DNA of 64,000 bases from Bacteroidia bacterium (GTDB lineage Bacteria > Bacteroidota > Bacteroidia > UBA4408). The position numbers were made by a program, and so were the translations under genes. Where the stretch lies: contig JALRAS010000001.1 of NCBI GenBank assembly GCA_023262495.1, positions 4,486 through 68,485 on the forward strand. Reading direction: 5' to 3'. Positions 9,183-41,827 of this stretch are shown piece by piece; positions within the stretch are counted from its first letter, which is position 1; every line of letters begins with the position of its first letter. The notes beneath the pieces are model-generated. The model was not told the DNA's origin and did not search any database. It saw nothing but the letters and a program-made list of their open reading frames with translations.

Positions 9183-10211
9183 TCATGCGGCTGTGATTTC
9201 GCCACGTAAATTTTTAGAGAGATTAGTTTTTATTTCGTCAATATTGGAAAAATTACCAAACAGATACATCAACTTAGTAACAGCAGCCTCAAAGGTAATG
9301 TCGGAACCACCAATAACACCGGCTTTAAGCAGCCCTTTGCTTGTGGCGTAACGGCCTTGGTTAACAGCTCCTTGATTGCACTGAGTAACATTTAATACAA
9401 CCAAATTTCTTTGTGACACCGCATTTTCAATTTCATTTAAAAACCATTCCTGTGTTGTTACATTTCCCGAACCAAATGTTTCTATAATAAGTGCTTTAAG
9501 ACCATTGCTATGCAGCACACTTGATACTACGGCAGGTGTAATACCGGGAAAAAGTTTAAGCACACCAATATTGCCATCCATATCTAGTCTTAATTTAAGT
9601 TCACCCGATGGTTTGGGCATTAAACAAGGATAATTGTATTCTATATTAATTCCTGCCTCGGCCAATATAGGATAGTTAGGCGATTTAAACGCATCAAAAT
9701 GCTCGGCATTATATTTATGTGTGCGATTACCTCGGTAAAGTTTATATTCGAAATAAATGGCAACTTCATTAATCACAGGGGTACCATGATTTTTTGCAGC
9801 AGCAATTTCAATAGCTGTGATGAGGTTTTCTTTACCATCAGTGCGTATCATTCCAATAGGTAGTTGGGAACCGGTAAGAATAACCGGCTTGCCTAGATTT
9901 TCGAGCATAAAACTTAGGGCAGCGGCAGTATATGCCATCGTATCGGTGCCGTGTAATATTACAAAACCATCATACAGTTGATAATTATCATCAATTATTG
10001 CCGCTAATTTTTGCCAAGCGTCAATGGTCATATCAGATGAGTCAATTGGCTTATCAAATGACTTTACCGAGAGCTCCAAATCGAATTTTTCTACCTCGGG
10101 CACCTGTTTGTAGAGATGCTCAAAATCAAATGGAACAAGCGTATTTGTTTTATTATCAAGCACCATGCCTATTGTTCCACCGGTGTATATGATTAGAATT
10201 TTTGTTTTCAC
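9183..10211 (-). CDS. ansA: L-asparaginase, type I (cytoplasmic)
   Basis: The N-terminus ILIIYTGGTIGM carries the catalytic Thr motif, HGTDTMAYTAAALSF is present, and the length is 342 aa. Confidence 0.9.
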   Translation of the reverse strand: MKTKILIIYTGGTIGMVLDNKTNTLVPFDFEHLYKQVPEVEKFDLELSVKSFDKPIDSSDMTIDAWQKLAAIIDDNYQLYDGFVILHGTDTMAYTAAALSFMLENLGKPVILTGSQLPIGMIRTDGKENLITAIEIAAAKNHGTPVINEVAIYFEYKLYRGNRTHKYNAEHFDAFKSPNYPILAEAGINIEYNYPCLMPKPSGELKLRLDMDGNIGVLKLFPGITPAVVSSVLHSNGLKALIIETFGSGNVTTQEWFLNEIENAVSQRNLVVLNVTQCNQGAVNQGRYATSKGLLKAGVIGGSDITFEAAVTKLMYLFGNFSNIDEIKTNLSKNLRGEITAA

Positions 10212-36443: not shown

Positions 36444-37352
36444 CTAATGCAAGATGAATTGGTTTAATGCCTCAATTACAATATTGGCATACTTAACTAT
36501 ATGCTGCCCAGGAATGTTTTCCCAGTACTTATTTTTTAAAATTAATGATTTTGACGCATTGGCAGCGCCCGAAATATGCGGAATACTAATCACATTCAAC
36601 ATCTCTTCCTTTTCAATTGATGGCTGTATAGTATTAATTTGAAGCCCCCCGAATGATGTGTTTTCCGACCAAATGTTTAATTTCTTATCATACAAATTAA
36701 GCAATGCATTTCCTGCATTATTTCCTAAAGTCAAGATAACAGACGGGCTAATAATTTTGATTTCCTTTTGTAAGATTTCGGCATGAGCGGGAAGACCTCT
36801 ATATGTTTTTAAAGCATTACTTTTAGAGAAAACTGTGTTGCCTTTTTTATCCTTTTTATTTTTTTCGATGTAAAAAAATAATTTAAAGATATCGGTCACG
36901 TAAATATTGAAGTGCTTAAGAATTTCACTAAAAAACTCAGCATTGGCATCGGTATTATTGTCAATTAAACTAAAGGGAGCCCAAAATCCAACCTGTTTCA
37001 ACAAACTTCCTTTGTTTCTATTTTTATACGCGATATGCTTACCTAAATTCTCTTCATTGGGGACAGGCGGTAATGCATCCATAGCACAGACCATAACCGT
37101 AGGTGCATTTTTTTTTGATGAACACTCCAAGTAAATTGGCAAATCGGTTGCAAATGACAGCGCTGTATGCCTCTCATTTACTTGATTAACAATAGCTAAA
37201 TAATTTGGATTTAAGGCTGAAAGTTCTGCAAAACTCAGTGTGTTTCGGAGTTCCTTTTTTTGTATTTCATTCAATACTTTGGAGTACTCCAATAACTCAT
37301 TGTAAATTAAGGACAATCTCCCATTACCGCAATTAACAAAACTGCTCTCCAA
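36444..37352 (-). CDS. Hypothetical protein with uracil-DNA-glycosylase-superfamily-like motifs (divergent)
   Basis: The order …NIYVTDIFK… (UDG vY.TN..KC-like), …PSVILTLGNNAGNALL… (UDG P.vivaLG..A-like) and …IPHISGAAN… (HPSP-like) matches the UDG fold, but the N-terminal active-site motif (GE.PG) is not conserved (CAMDALPP). Confidence 0.35.
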   Translation of the reverse strand: MESSFVNCGNGRLSLIYNELLEYSKVLNEIQKKELRNTLSFAELSALNPNYLAIVNQVNERHTALSFATDLPIYLECSSKKNAPTVMVCAMDALPPVPNEENLGKHIAYKNRNKGSLLKQVGFWAPFSLIDNNTDANAEFFSEILKHFNIYVTDIFKLFFYIEKNKKDKKGNTVFSKSNALKTYRGLPAHAEILQKEIKIISPSVILTLGNNAGNALLNLYDKKLNIWSENTSFGGLQINTIQPSIEKEEMLNVISIPHISGAANASKSLILKNKYWENIPGQHIVKYANIVIEALNQFILH

Positions 37353-37416
37353 CAGTTCTAACAGTTCATGTTGCTTGTTATGTAATGTAATTTCTATGGC
37401 CTTAAGGAATGATGTG

Positions 37417-38139
37417 TTATGAAAATGCTTTTACATAGGACATTGGGCAAATATAATCTTGCCTAAATTCAGAAATAACATCCTTATAATTTTCAATGTT
37501 AATAGGGTCACGATAATTGGTATAAAAATCTTTGAGGCATTCAACATCATTTTGAACAGGCATTTCATTATGCCATAAAAAAGTTAAATCACATGTGTTT
37601 ATTTTGACAACTCTTAATGCATATGCTGTATCATTCTCCATTAAAAATGAATCTGCCTTGCCAATATAATCACAACAAAATTCCAACACATTTTTGTCCA
37701 TTATAATATTGTGATAATCATCAACAATAATTCTGTCATCAGCAACACCAAAACTCAAATTTTCAAATGCGTTACTAAAAGTAAGTTCAACCTTACCTCC
37801 ATTTTCCTGCACCACCTCAAAAAATATTATCATTTTACCGGAATTAAATGGGGTTAATGATTGCTGATTACCATCCCACTTACCGCGCATTGTTCCTTTT
37901 TCGAGGCCGCTCTTATATTTTCCAATAAAACGATCATTTGAAAGGAAAGTCCATTCAAAAAGTCCATGATCTTTTTTATTTTTCCATATGCCCTCTACCT
38001 TATTTCCGATTAATTTACCACTACACACACCATCATCTTGATAGGTAGCGGTAACGTTATCGCCATTTTGAGCAATAGTTAATTCACCATGTTGTGTTTT
38101 GTACGTGCCTGATAAATTCACCTTTTTATATTTATCCAT
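37417..38139 (-). CDS. Hypothetical protein, paralogue B (shared N-terminal ~100-aa module plus unique C-terminus)
   Basis: The N-terminus SGTYKTQHGELTIAQNGDNVTATYQDDGVCSGKLIGNKVEGIWKNKKDHGLFEWTF…GKYKSGLEKGTMRGKWDG is about 85% identical to the N-terminus of the upstream gene. Its start overlaps the upstream stop (ATGGATAA). Confidence 0.5.
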   Translation of the reverse strand: MDKYKKVNLSGTYKTQHGELTIAQNGDNVTATYQDDGVCSGKLIGNKVEGIWKNKKDHGLFEWTFLSNDRFIGKYKSGLEKGTMRGKWDGNQQSLTPFNSGKMIIFFEVVQENGGKVELTFSNAFENLSFGVADDRIIVDDYHNIIMDKNVLEFCCDYIGKADSFLMENDTAYALRVVKINTCDLTFLWHNEMPVQNDVECLKDFYTNYRDPINIENYKDVISEFRQDYICPMSYVKAFS

Positions 38140-39328
38140 TTAATAAGAAATCTAAATTAATGTCCCTTGACTCATATTCCAACTCAATCCCTTTATCTCT
38201 ATGCCAGCTTTCATCAGGAAGCACTAGTTCATTATCATAGAACATATAGTTTGCGATTGTCGTCAATGAGTTTCCTCTGAAATCACCATAATTGGCGTGT
38301 GAAAGGAAAAGTAATTTAGACAGATTAAAATTTTCTACTTCAAGGTAGTAGGAATAATCAATAATATCATCATGCATTATTGTTATGCTAAAATCTCGAT
38401 CGCTGATTTCTTCAAATGCTTGGGGAGAAAACCACGCCTCGCAGAACATAACCCCTTCCTTATTGATTCCAACTCCAAGATCATCGGGCAGACCAAATTC
38501 TCCTGAATTTTTTCGAATAAATGCTTTAAGGGTATCAAAGATTTTATTTTCAAATTCATCAACCGGAGTATCTTCAGTATGATAACCTTTTACTACTTTT
38601 GAAAAATCTCCAAAACTGCTACTTTTATGGATTTCCTTACCGTTCACTAATATTTGAATACTGCAATCGTCCTCAAAAAAAGTAATAAATCCTGTACCCC
38701 CAGCCCAATAGTCGGCAGTATCAAAAAGTGCATCATACAAACCAAAATGATCTAAATCATATTCCAATATTTCTTGATATAGTGCATAAAAATTGGGACA
38801 TTTATCCTCTAGTTCAGATAGAGCAATAAGGTTAGTAAAATTTTCTCTTTCTGTATCTTTATCTTCAAGGGTGGTGCTTAATAAAAGTCTTAAAAAATCC
38901 TGCTCCGTTTCAATTGACTCATCAGCTATTGATAACACATCTTGCAATTCCTCTTGGAATGACTCTTTAACCTTACCAAAATAATATTTGGGTATTCTAC
39001 CGCTCAAAATAATTTCAACTTTATCTTTTTCGCGCACTTCGGCATCACTCTCATGAAGTATGGAATCAATTGCCTTTCCATCCCACTTACCTCTCATAGG
39101 GCCCTTTTCTATTCCGCTTTTATATTTGCCTGAAAAGTTTCCTTTATCATCAAATATCCATTCAAAGAGTCCCTGATCTTTCTTGTTTTTCCAGATACCT
39201 TCAACTTTATTTCCAATTAGTTTACCACTGCATACGCCATTTTCTTGATAGGTAGCAGTGATATTGTCGCCATTTTGAGCAATACTTAACTCGCCATGCT
39301 GTGTTTTATATGTGCCGTTAATATTCAT
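38132..39328 (-). CDS. Hypothetical protein, paralogue A (shared N-terminal module plus a ~300-aa acidic C-terminal region)
   Basis: It starts MNINGTYKTQHGELSIAQNGDNITATYQENGVCSGKLIGNKVEGIWKNKKDQGLFEWIF…. The ORF track begins at a GTG (39370), 14 codons upstream, inside the preceding small ORF. Confidence 0.5.
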   Translation of the reverse strand: MNINGTYKTQHGELSIAQNGDNITATYQENGVCSGKLIGNKVEGIWKNKKDQGLFEWIFDDKGNFSGKYKSGIEKGPMRGKWDGKAIDSILHESDAEVREKDKVEIILSGRIPKYYFGKVKESFQEELQDVLSIADESIETEQDFLRLLLSTTLEDKDTERENFTNLIALSELEDKCPNFYALYQEILEYDLDHFGLYDALFDTADYWAGGTGFITFFEDDCSIQILVNGKEIHKSSSFGDFSKVVKGYHTEDTPVDEFENKIFDTLKAFIRKNSGEFGLPDDLGVGINKEGVMFCEAWFSPQAFEEISDRDFSITIMHDDIIDYSYYLEVENFNLSKLLFLSHANYGDFRGNSLTTIANYMFYDNELVLPDESWHRDKGIELEYESRDINLDFLLNG

Positions 39329-39329
39329 C

Positions 39330-39530
39330 TTACAGCTTTTGGATATCAAAATATGAGGAAGAGATAGCACTGCTCGAAACCTCCAAGCCGAAAGCTGATT
39401 TTATTGTTTTTGCCACATTGCTCATTTGCGGAGCTGTTGAACTTTGCTCGATATGCTGAAAGCTAGCGCCTTTAGGAATTTTTCCACCTGCAATTGGTTG
39501 TTTTGTTGTTAATTTAAATGCGTATGCCAT
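39330..39530 (-). CDS. Small ORF (66 aa), possibly a genuine small protein translationally coupled to paralogue A
   Basis: Its stop TAA is separated by one nt from the ATG of the next gene (TAAgATG). The product has GG at residues 15-16 (MAYAFKLTTKQPIAGG|KIPKG…) and is Ser/Ala-rich. Confidence 0.35.
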   Translation of the reverse strand: MAYAFKLTTKQPIAGGKIPKGASFQHIEQSSTAPQMSNVAKTIKSAFGLEVSSSAISSSYFDIQKL

Positions 39531-39853
39531 TTGAAATAATTTTAATTCCTACTCGTTTGGCTTTTCGGATTCGCCCCTCGATTATCCCATCGGGGAAGGC
39601 CGTTTTTTAATGGTTTCTGGTCTCCAACATTATTTGATACAAATTTGTATTTTGTAAAATCAAAGTGAAAGTTCAAGTTGGATTAAGTTAGGCTTAAGTA
39701 GCGATAACCGAATTACGCAACATAATAACAGGAGTTGCTAAAACAGCCGTAACTCAATTCATTGGTTAAATAAATTGAAAGCACATCCTAAGCAAGGTTG
39801 CCCTCGTCAAATCAACGGTACGCTTCATTCGCAATTTCTACTGAATAATTAAG

Positions 39854-40732
39854 TCAAAACATCTGGCTTAAAAAAATTGAAAGCAGAATCAATACTATTC
39901 CAACAAGCTGTTTTATAGAGAGCTTTTCTTGATATATAATTATGCTTGCCAACAGCGCAACAATCAGCTGAAAATTAGCTATTAAATCAAGATTTAAAAT
40001 AGTTACATGTTGAATGGCTAAATTAAAAAATAGGGTTCCACCAATAAGCAGTAAAGCCAATATAAAATATGTGATTAAATTTGATTTTTGAAGTAAAATA
40101 ATCGTATTAAATTCCTTCCTTTCTAACCTTGCCCAAATAAAAGCGGAAACAGTTACACAAATTTCAAGCATACAAGCAAGTGGAATAGCGCCTAATGTTG
40201 TTGATAAGAACTTAAATAAAGGATAAGTTATGCCCCAAAAAAATGCTGCCATCAGGGCGTATGTTGCTCCTTTATTCCATTGTAATAAATTGCATTTAAA
40301 TGAAATATCTTGGGTAAATAAAACACCTATTCCGGCCAAGGAAAAACAAATCCAATAAACACTGCGAAACGCTTCACCAACAACTAATACGGCAGTTAAA
40401 AGATTGAAAATATTAATCGAGGCCAATGAGACAGTTAAACTAACTGTTTGATATCTTAATGAGGCAAGAAAAAAGCATATCCCCAAAGAGCAAATAAAAC
40501 AAATGCAGATTGCTATTAGGTAAAATTGAGGATTAGTACTAGGTTGAATGAGTTGAACATTTTCATCATCACACACAAATAAAAAAAACCATAACAAAGT
40601 AAAAAAAGTGGATGCAATAAGCCCTCTAAAGACTATCAAATAAGGATAATCAATTCGCTTAGATGCATGTTTCCAATAAACGTTGCTAATGCCAAAAAAT
40701 AAGGCACTCAGTATTCCATATAAATATGCCAT
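39854..40732 (-). CDS. DMT-superfamily (EamA-like) membrane transporter
   Basis: 292 aa with about 10 TM helices in two 5-TM halves; WKHASKRIDY… is an EamA-like N-terminus. Confidence 0.6.
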   Translation of the reverse strand: MAYLYGILSALFFGISNVYWKHASKRIDYPYLIVFRGLIASTFFTLLWFFLFVCDDENVQLIQPSTNPQFYLIAICICFICSLGICFFLASLRYQTVSLTVSLASINIFNLLTAVLVVGEAFRSVYWICFSLAGIGVLFTQDISFKCNLLQWNKGATYALMAAFFWGITYPLFKFLSTTLGAIPLACMLEICVTVSAFIWARLERKEFNTIILLQKSNLITYFILALLLIGGTLFFNLAIQHVTILNLDLIANFQLIVALLASIIIYQEKLSIKQLVGIVLILLSIFLSQMF

Positions 40733-40738
40733 TTTGTA

Positions 40739-41827
40739 TTAAGGACGATGGTAAATTATTCCATTGGGTTCGAAATAATTTAAACTACACTCCAATTTTT
40801 TATGAAATATATGAGCCGGAATTTGAGCGAACTGTTTTTCAAAAATAATTTTAAGTTTTGAATGAAATACCTCACTGATACTACTGTATATGAAGGTTTC
40901 AGCAATCGTATGAAATAAAATATTTTGTTCGTATAAAGATACTTTGGGCTTTAATTTCTGACATAACTGCAACAAATAATATGCGTAGTCTTCCTGTGAC
41001 TTTTGAGATGTATTCATCAACTTCAAATACCATAACTTGTATGCCATAAAACGTATGAACGGAAAAATATAAATTTCATTTATTTGTGATTCTATTAATT
41101 CAAATTCCGCATAAAGTGACTTTCCAATAGTTTGGGCTTTTTTGTAATTTTTAGTAACCAAATAATAACGAAATATTACACAATTTCCAAAAATATAATC
41201 TTGAAAGGAGGAAATACTTTGATATTTATTCACCCCTTTTAAATATGATGAATAGTTTAAATCAAAATATTTAATACGAAATTTGGGATCATAACCTTGC
41301 TCCATAAGGTATTCACGAACAAATTTTTGATTTGCAAAATAATTTATAAAAGTATTAGGATTGGGGATCATTTGAAGATTATCAAAGAGCGCAAGGGTTA
41401 CACTTGTTTTATAATCATGTGATTCACTGCTCAGTGCATCAAAAAAATCATTAAGAGGTTTAAAGGAATTGTTCCATAGGCAATGAAATATTAAATGCTT
41501 GTCCATAAGATAACCAGAATTTGAAGTATCTGATGGTACATAAAATTGTTCCAAATTAAGACGATTTAAAAAATCAGATATATCTGCGTATCCTAAAAAA
41601 CGACATAAAATATTTAATGTGCTTTTATAAGGATTATGCTTATCCGGTTGAAAATAAATTCTATAGATTGTTGTCACTGATAAATACCCAGCACCACTTT
41701 CTGAAATCAATTCTGAAAGCTTCATACAATCGGATTTACCGGAAACTGTAAACCTTACTTTTATTGCAAGTTCCTTTTTTAATCGTTCAATAACTAAAGG
41801 ATTAACTATTGCATTTACTTGATTCAT
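40739..41827 (-). CDS. Hypothetical protein with a predicted N-terminal helix-turn-helix
   Basis: 362 aa, very AT-rich codon usage. Residues ~35-57 (MKLSELISESGAGYLSVTTIYRIY) look like an HTH. The rest has no recognisable motif. It ends 6 bp upstream of the DMT gene. Confidence 0.45.
   Translation of the reverse strand: MNQVNAIVNPLVIERLKKELAIKVRFTVSGKSDCMKLSELISESGAGYLSVTTIYRIYFQPDKHNPYKSTLNILCRFLGYADISDFLNRLNLEQFYVPSDTSNSGYLMDKHLIFHCLWNNSFKPLNDFFDALSSESHDYKTSVTLALFDNLQMIPNPNTFINYFANQKFVREYLMEQGYDPKFRIKYFDLNYSSYLKGVNKYQSISSFQDYIFGNCVIFRYYLVTKNYKKAQTIGKSLYAEFELIESQINEIYIFPFIRFMAYKLWYLKLMNTSQKSQEDYAYYLLQLCQKLKPKVSLYEQNILFHTIAETFIYSSISEVFHSKLKIIFEKQFAQIPAHIFHKKLECSLNYFEPNGIIYHRP

Follow-up and report, generated by a model that had tools for sequence, protein, structure and literature searches.

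The minus strand of a 64,000-nucleotide stretch from a Bacteroidia bacterium (GenBank assembly GCA_023262495.1, contig JALRAS010000001.1), hereafter the window, carries two closely packed paralogous genes, p1 and p2, which share an N-terminal head module and are followed by a divergent gene of the uracil-DNA-glycosylase (UDG) superfamily (Table 1). The head is a novel, previously undescribed module; its tails are replaced among closely related strains, and in other genomes it is fused to the UDG-like protein. We read these genes as a modular system in phage–host conflict, in which a glycosylase effector is combined with swappable barrel-headed partners, and assign this reading a probability of roughly 40%. 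The head would be the common docking or sensor module linking many tails to one glycosylase, and the barrel-headed proteins would be specificity or regulatory subunits of this enzyme. The glycosylase would attack DNA as the effector of the conflict. Recombination between head repeats, with deletion, replacement and gene conversion, would produce the diversity of the tails. We infer the contact between head and glycosylase, the activity and substrate of the enzyme, and the role in defence.

The genes are located on a conserved, AT-rich island of ~5.4 kb in freshwater Bacteroidota. The order on the island is a 362-aa protein, in some genomes an EamA-family transporter, a structured RNA of the DUF805 type, a 66-aa protein, one to four barrel-headed proteins and the UDG-like protein. 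The initial annotation had covered the 66-aa open reading frame (ORF), p1 and p2 and had left out both the conserved UDG-like partner downstream and the RNA motif upstream. It described two packed paralogues with a shared N-terminal module of ~100 aa and unrelated C-termini. The paralogy is clear: 67 of 84 head residues are identical (80%; BLASTP E 1e-46), and past the shared module BLASTP detected no significant similarity between p1 and p2. Profile–profile alignment with hhalign assigned a homology probability of 1% to the tail families of p1 (class A) and p2 (class B). The module is shorter than described, ~85-88 aa, and both tails are acidic, not only one of them. Their isoelectric points (pI) are 4.26 (308 aa) and 4.38 (144 aa), in contrast to the basic heads (pI 8.7-9.2). 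Within the 64-kb window, tblastn found copies of the module in p1 and p2 only. Synonymous codons of the two heads are 54% identical, which is background and equals the level between genomes. Together with 80% identity of the head proteins, this indicates purifying selection and shows that the similarity is not due to chance. A recent gene conversion between the two heads of the window was rejected on the basis of the same background value.

The junction between the 66-aa ORF and p1 reads TAA-G-ATG, which confirms the spacer of 1 nt noted initially. No gene lies between p1 and p2; the two abut or overlap. An overlap of the p2 ATG with the p1 stop had also been reported, and it is present with a length of 8 nt (ATGGATAA), but this ATG may not be the functional start. 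An in-frame GTG within p2 (38119-38121, minus strand) gives (M)NLSGTYK, a family-typical N-terminus, and a product of 234 aa, the length of the p2 orthologue in the sister strains. The true start may therefore be located 10 nt past the p1 stop. Hydropathy revealed neither a signal peptide nor a transmembrane segment in p1 and p2, with maxima over 19 residues of 0.79 and 0.71, respectively.

Scans of p1, p2 and the 66-aa ORF against Pfam, NCBIfam, PADLOC and PHROGs returned nothing, and no model of these databases matched the head module, in agreement with its initial description as novel. Comparison of the head with PDB sequence profiles gave no meaningful match. Structure prediction and profile searches had been recommended for the module. 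The former confidently predicted a soluble, eight-stranded beta-barrel. The latter, run exhaustively on 1.84 billion representatives, detected 1072 proteins at E ≤ 1e-3 and 315 at E ≤ 1e-10. A word-indexed search yielded 46 relatives, which originate without exception from metagenomes or Bacteroidota metagenome-assembled genomes (MAGs) and combine the head with six or more different tails. Family statistics were drawn from 183 examined proteins carrying the module. A single head starting at residues 1-12 is present in 126 of them, and the loop G-P-M-R-G-K-W-x-G is kept in 112 of these. Multi-repeat proteins account for 55 of the 183; the loop was found in one of the 55, and signal peptides were present in those that were read. 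Examples are P0061-P0065, P0093 and P0124, in which the barrel forms three to five tandem repeats in signal-peptide proteins and also occurs between Ig-like domains, the latter in surface proteins of 1800-2200 aa. The forms in these proteins lack the GPMRGKW loop and probably constitute an extracellular subfamily of their own.

Tails of at least 60 aa (116 sequences) were grouped into 34 clusters without mutual BLAST similarity. They are net-acidic in 95% of cases; the charge per residue has a median of -0.116. Recognisable tails comprise MORN (13 proteins), DUF4116 (7), FtsK-gamma (3), Fib_succ_major (2) and PD-(D/E)XK, Sel1 and TerB (one each); the majority had no domain match. The head and MORN proteins P0074, P0078, P0081 and P0096 have a common unannotated C-terminal domain of ~90 aa. 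It follows a Lys/Glu-rich coiled stretch and has a motif of roughly IEYKIKLTKA ... GRAGTSTI..I. Variable effectors, such as a glycosylase and a PD-(D/E)XK nuclease, attached to a constant sensor would fit the logic of cyclic-oligonucleotide-based antiphage signalling systems (CBASS), with a Cap15-like barrel that senses a nucleotide second messenger and activates diverse C-terminal effectors. This explanation is very unlikely. The PDB sequence-profile search did not find Cap15 even at E 10, PADLOC had no match, transmembrane helices are absent, and no cyclase or signal-producing enzyme was recognised among the annotated neighbours of the loci.

Polymorphism at the locus is genuine: among strains with ~99% identity, one tail is replaced by another on the same head. 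Four sister-strain contigs (L001-L004) match the window in their flanking genes, with 98.8-99.5% DNA identity. In these contigs the p1 site is taken by a gene for a class C protein of 342 aa, in place of p1 with its class A product of 398 aa. The DNA of the first head is still 98.4% identical between the window and L001. Up to position 39083, where the p1 head ends on its 3' side, both sequences align with 99.5% identity. Unrelated sequence follows, and identity is back to 98.8% from position 38100, at the 5' boundary of the p2 head. The constant head and variable tail noted initially are thus a real polymorphism, with class C in place of class A in sister strains and at least 34 tail classes in the family.

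Further C-terminal variants had been expected elsewhere, and related genomes indeed have arrays of one to four barrel-headed genes. The tail classes are ordered C, A, B in L021 and C, A, E, B in L005. The window shares the order A, B with L006, L032 and L033, L001 and L031 have C, B, and L026 and L027 have A alone. The order C, A, (E), B stays constant in more distant genomes while members come or go. Class B orthologues were found in L001-4, L005, L006, L021 and L031-L034. Heads have been homogenised by concerted evolution in L021 and L005. The heads of L021 share 89-94% of their amino acids and 81-86% of their synonymous codons among themselves, compared with 38-47% identity to heads of other genomes; the class A tail of L021 is a 46% orthologue of that of the window. 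The exchange bounded by heads and the homogenisation of heads in some genomes indicate that the head repeats are recombination substrates, with a strongly constrained protein sequence.

Constant N-termini, variable C-termini and recombinational cassette replacement are also expected for polymorphic toxins, with the head as a trafficking domain, or for an array of immunity proteins, many of which are small, acidic and cytoplasmic like the proteins encoded here. Toxin or immunity cassettes were the initial suggestion, which now appears highly improbable. The proteins have no signal peptide or transmembrane segment and no PAAR, Rhs, LXG, MIX or other secretion marker, and immunity genes are not interleaved with the barrel-headed genes. 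No toxin, Imm or SUKH-type Pfam family was present in 82 family members. No secretion-system genes were found among the annotated neighbours of the examined loci, and no recognised toxin gene was seen among annotated neighbours of barrel-headed genes.

The gene directly downstream of p2 encodes a divergent protein of the UDG superfamily. Its product matched the Pfam UDG model with 27.8 bits (gathering score 24.3) and has motif A, the base-reading motif and the histidine of motif B that define the superfamily. The motifs AMD(P/S)LPP, PFSL, YVTDIYK, LGN and PHISGAANG are kept in 28 members of the UDG-like family. The protein is basic (pI 8.7) and has an N-terminal extension of ~95 aa. The best PDB profile match of the family was the family-4 UDG of S. 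tokodaii (4zbx, E 6.6e-4), and UdgX structures were matched as well. YVTD of the UDG-like family aligns with YVTN of the family-4 and UdgX enzymes, and its Asp is invariant. The Asn of this motif reads the Watson–Crick face of uracil in family-4 UDGs, and cytosine is reportedly excised by human UNG with the N204D substitution. The invariant Asp at the uracil-reading site points to another substrate, possibly a cytosine-like or modified base; judged from the sequence, the enzyme probably excises such a base and not uracil. At 37395-37397 the window has ATA where the orthologues of L006 and L032 start with ATG. ATA is fixed in all five contigs of the species, and the nearest start after it, a TTG, follows 15 codons further on. 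The gene may have a non-canonical start or a shortened N-terminus.

An all-against-all comparison of neighbours placed the UDG-like family next to barrel-headed genes in loci from Chitinophagaceae-like and Flavobacteriales MAGs. With metagenome contigs included, the UDG-like gene adjoins barrel-headed genes in 16 of the 19 module-seeded loci with enough flanking sequence. These loci represent two taxonomic orders and at least five different flanking contexts, among them an aminotransferase, purine genes, a tRNA and an island with DNA ligase and leucine-rich-repeat (LRR) proteins. The barrel-headed genes precede the UDG-like gene at a spacing of 18-19 nt. In the smallest cassette (L024), a single barrel-headed gene and the UDG-like gene are located among genes for purine biosynthesis. 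Three loci were found with the UDG-like gene as seed; one of them, L019, has a small ORF and a barrel-headed gene ahead of the UDG-like gene.

Gene fusions provided the strongest evidence tying the head to the UDG-like protein. Direct head::UDG fusions of 364-368 aa make up 7 of 106 UDG-like clusters, with the head detected at E 1e-25 to 1e-30. On one short contig, a single ORF encodes the UDG-like protein, the head and a class D tail. The fusion locus L041 again has a DUF805 RNA and small ORF as well as a gene homologous to that of the 362-aa protein, and in the fusion locus L042 a DUF805 RNA precedes a 120-aa ORF.

Several observations weigh against a modular glycosylase system. An adjacent UDG-like gene is absent at L005, L031 and L036, which have arrays or single barrel-headed genes. 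The partner in the UDG-seeded locus L020 is a MORN protein without head, and in L018 it is an unrelated acidic protein. Phylogenetic independence does not hold for all of the loci counted. The barrel is also tandemly repeated in secreted and giant surface proteins and may be a generic fold without a dedicated partner. With ATA replacing ATG, the expression of the UDG-like gene in this species is uncertain. No PADLOC defence model matched the genes of the system, and no recognised defence gene lies beside the island of the window.

The three loci without the UDG-like gene and the extracellular repeat proteins would be explained if the barrel-headed genes were lineage-specific paralogues unrelated to the glycosylase, both residing independently at a shared insertion site for variable islands. 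The 1072 head representatives versus 106 UDG-like clusters agree with this. Such co-residence is nevertheless unlikely, as seven independent head::UDG fusion clusters and a UDG::head ORF exist, and the adjacency holds across flanking contexts and in two orders with a tight, operon-like spacing.

The class A domain is not restricted to barrel-headed proteins and provides a link to phages. Stand-alone versions have 290-310 aa; one is encoded in L022, a contig of tightly packed small ORFs, and a homologue with 35% identity is encoded on a 344-kb IMG/VR viral contig (L025). Small acidic ORFs surround the class A homologue of L025 (3100-9200), and several share the C-terminal motif ..IEELGI/L, which suggests a phage multigene family. 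A Foldseek search of BFVD with class A retrieved four proteins of uncultured Caudovirales (E 8e-7 to 1e-4). TM-scores were low (0.31-0.46), and these matches of predicted structures are supportive only. Class A had no meaningful match to PDB sequence profiles, and class B had no relative in PDB. Scans of the IMG/VR viral contigs with the head, the class B tail and the UDG-like protein had no hits, and p1 and the UDG-like protein had no tblastn match in 50,697 phage records.

Ugi, p56 and SAUGI are acidic DNA-mimic inhibitors of UDG, and two of them are encoded by phages. The acidic tails could have a corresponding function and restrain a potentially self-damaging glycosylase; in that case, the stand-alone class A domains of phages would serve as inhibitors for counter-defence. 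The strong acidity of 95% of the tails, the basic UDG-like protein, the phage relatives of class A and the position of the partner genes, 18-19 nt ahead of the glycosylase gene, are all in line with an inhibitor function. It is quite unlikely in view of the partners: unrelated tails (A, D, F and MORN type) are each the sole partner of closely related glycosylases. Specific inhibition of the groove by unrelated folds is not parsimonious, and the head::UDG fusions are devoid of any acidic tail.

The modular glycosylase system may be extended to a new class of immune system, in which a universal barrel head couples dozens of modules to a glycosylase for modified or cytosine-like bases. Some tail modules would be of phage origin, the DUF805-type leader and the coupled micro-protein would set expression, and specificity would be renewed by head-repeat recombination. 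We regard this wider proposal as doubtful.

Table 1. Coordinates of the features of the island in the window and of related RNA motifs in other loci
Feature	Sequence	Position	Strand	Remark
362-aa protein	window	40739..41827	minus	function unassigned, recurrent companion
EamA-family transporter gene	window	39854..40732	minus	Pfam EamA E 1.5e-21
DUF805-type structured RNA leader (Rfam RF03081)	window	39542..39632	minus	directly upstream of 66-aa ORF
66-aa ORF	window	39530..39330	minus	directly before p1, translationally coupled
p1	window	ATG at 39328, stop TAA at 38134-38132	minus	398 aa
p1 head module, residues 1-88	window	39065..39328	minus	eight-stranded beta-barrel (predicted)
p1 tail, class A acidic domain	window	38132..39064	minus	~300 aa; no similar solved structure
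Segment exchanged between strains	window versus L001	38100..39083	minus	class A tail and inter-gene junction
p2	window	ATG at 38139, stop at 37419-37417	minus	240 aa
p2 head module	window	37858..38139	minus	from ATG 38139 or GTG 38121; hidden Markov model E 6e-44
p2 tail, class B acidic domain	window	37417..37857	minus	~144 aa
Divergent UDG-superfamily gene	window	36444..37397	minus	called from TTG 37352, 302 aa
DUF805/DUF805b motifs	L005	2803-2872, 6495-6561		
DUF805/DUF805b motifs	L006	1002-1066, 9721-9786		
DUF805/DUF805b motifs	L019	3463-3531		
DUF805/DUF805b motifs	L021	6222-6254, 6587-6656		

The 66-aa protein is basic (pI 9.7). Its homologues form 14 clusters of 65-66 aa with 76-92% identity. 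In L001-4, L006, L027-L031 and L037, a syntenic copy precedes the first barrel-headed gene by 1-5 nt. L005 and L021 have distant relatives, and in L019, L021 and L041 a second type of small protein is encoded at the corresponding position. A lack of conservation of this ORF and a housekeeping family for the head were named in the initial annotation as arguments against it; the ORF is conserved in homologous loci, and the head belongs to no such family. A precomputed PF19637 (DUF6140) label on two homologues was not reproduced by hmmscan. The Gly-Gly pair at residues 15-16 is present, and its resemblance to a leader site had been pointed out. A double-glycine leader was rejected: the pair is limited to close homologues and replaced by G-D in the relatives of L005 and L021, and neither a C39 peptidase nor an ABC transporter is encoded nearby.

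The RNA leader is the sole Rfam match in the window, with 42.9 bits and E 1.8e-5 in 6 kb. The score is below the gathering score of 51.1 because of a ~29-nt insertion in the second hairpin. Scores at the same position in other loci are 76.9 (L006), 73.6 (L005), 78.6 (L021), 76.9 (L029), 72.9 (L038) and 76.7 bits (L041). In the window, L005, L006, L019 and L021, almost all small ORFs follow a DUF805 or DUF805b motif (Rfam clan CL00115). A motif of this type is also located ahead of a bacteriorhodopsin gene in L019 and of a gene for a 92-aa membrane protein in L005. The occurrence before other small ORFs and the rhodopsin gene indicates a general leader that is not specific for the system. A conserved GAGUAGGAA is present ~10 nt before the ATG; it is Shine-Dalgarno-like, which is unusual for Bacteroidota. 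A literature search for DUF6140, DUF4116 and DUF805 revealed nothing useful, and the main text of Weinberg 2017 is without the DUF805 motif.

The 362-aa protein had no match in Pfam, NCBIfam or PDB. Its N-terminal ~90 aa appear helix-turn-helix-like by eye only, and no database model supports this. Homologues are encoded beside the array in L005, L006, L021, L028, L029 and L038. In L030 and L037 they are located directly upstream of the small ORF, in divergent orientation. Further homologues were found in a Crocinitomicaceae locus (L016, 28% identity) and in the fusion locus L041 (E 1e-94). In the window, L005, L006 and L021, the EamA gene separates the 362-aa gene from the small ORF; it is absent in L030 and L037, where these two are directly adjacent, and is probably a neighbour and not a part of the system. 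The GC content is 28-34% on the island and 36-40% in the flanks, with the lowest values in the 362-aa gene (28-30%).

In four Flavobacteriales MAGs (L012, L014, L015 and L017), the barrel-headed and UDG-like genes are part of a larger conserved island. It encodes an ATP-dependent DNA ligase, BRCT-like proteins (recognised by eye only), repeated LRR proteins of ~860 aa and conserved unknown proteins of 203, 231 and 229 aa. The PADLOC scan of L015 gave a weak CorA-like match only. In L010, a tRNA gene (9635-9707) is located ~300 nt upstream of a gene for a 729-aa barrel-headed protein, which is followed by the UDG-like gene; this suggests a tRNA-adjacent insertion site. A group II intron (L018 495-668, minus strand; RF02001, 119 bits) with its reverse transcriptase and a YafQ toxin gene are located near the UDG-like gene of L018. 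Toxin–antitoxin genes are present near L018 and L020.

If the modular reading is correct, it defines a new, widespread module with more than 1000 cluster representatives and no Pfam entry, and at least one confidently modelled domain without a similar solved structure. The locus clearly illustrates, in nature, how a repeated coding module can drive the exchange of cassettes and concerted evolution. Both the orphan RNA motif DUF805 and micro-proteins resembling DUF6140 would gain a testable genomic context, in a setting of abundant and little-studied freshwater Bacteroidota. Defences based on glycosylases (Brig1, Brig2, Dag) would extend from single genes to a multi-component combinatorial system.

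Parts of the arrangement have counterparts in known conflict systems. Polymorphic toxins of the contact-dependent inhibition, Rhs and type VI or type VII secretion systems, as well as poly-immunity loci, also have constant and variable ends, tandem arrays and cassette replacement at the constant region. The loci described here differ by having no secretion marker, toxin domain, cognate immunity gene or known immunity family. Cap15 of CBASS (PDB 7n34) has two N-terminal transmembrane helices and a CD-NTase operon, neither of which is present here, and there is no sequence relationship. Like Ugi, p56 and SAUGI, the tails belong to strongly acidic proteins tied to a UDG-family enzyme, and class A has stand-alone relatives in phages; in contrast, the tails exceed these inhibitors in size and comprise many types that are unrelated to each other.

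Conflict systems with adaptors named 'effector-associated domains' were reportedly described by Kaur, Burroughs, Iyer and Aravind in eLife in 2020; their adaptors are said to be mostly alpha-helical and death-like and the systems to be centred on STAND proteins or other NTPases. The barrel-headed genes share with them a short N-terminal domain that is common to neighbouring genes (arrays of 2-4) with differing C-terminal modules and to an enzymatic effector, and loci that are variable and island-like. The adaptor differs in being a predicted eight-stranded beta-barrel, and no NTPase or STAND protein with the head was present among the 183 family proteins or in the examined loci.

The closest parallels are Brig1 and Brig2. 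UDG-family enzymes are proven phage defences, and those of the Brig2 type are located in AT-rich regions (bioRxiv 10.1101/2025.10.29.685425). The UDG-like gene is likewise a divergent member of the UDG superfamily on an AT-rich, patchily distributed island. Brig1 has Glu147 at the site of Asn82 of the S. tokodaii UDG, which is its best structural match (PMC11078745). Here, the acidic residue at the uracil-reading site is an Asp, and among proteins of solved structure the S. tokodaii enzyme is again the closest, in this case by sequence. Genes for ADP-ribosylglycohydrolases were observed next to or near the system in L021 (3134-4111) and L019 (10602-11558); such a gene also neighbours brig1 (PMC11078745). 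Sequence similarity to Brig1 was seen at the superfamily level only. Brig1 and Brig2 are single genes, whereas the UDG-like protein has an extension of ~95 aa and is linked or fused to the barrel head.

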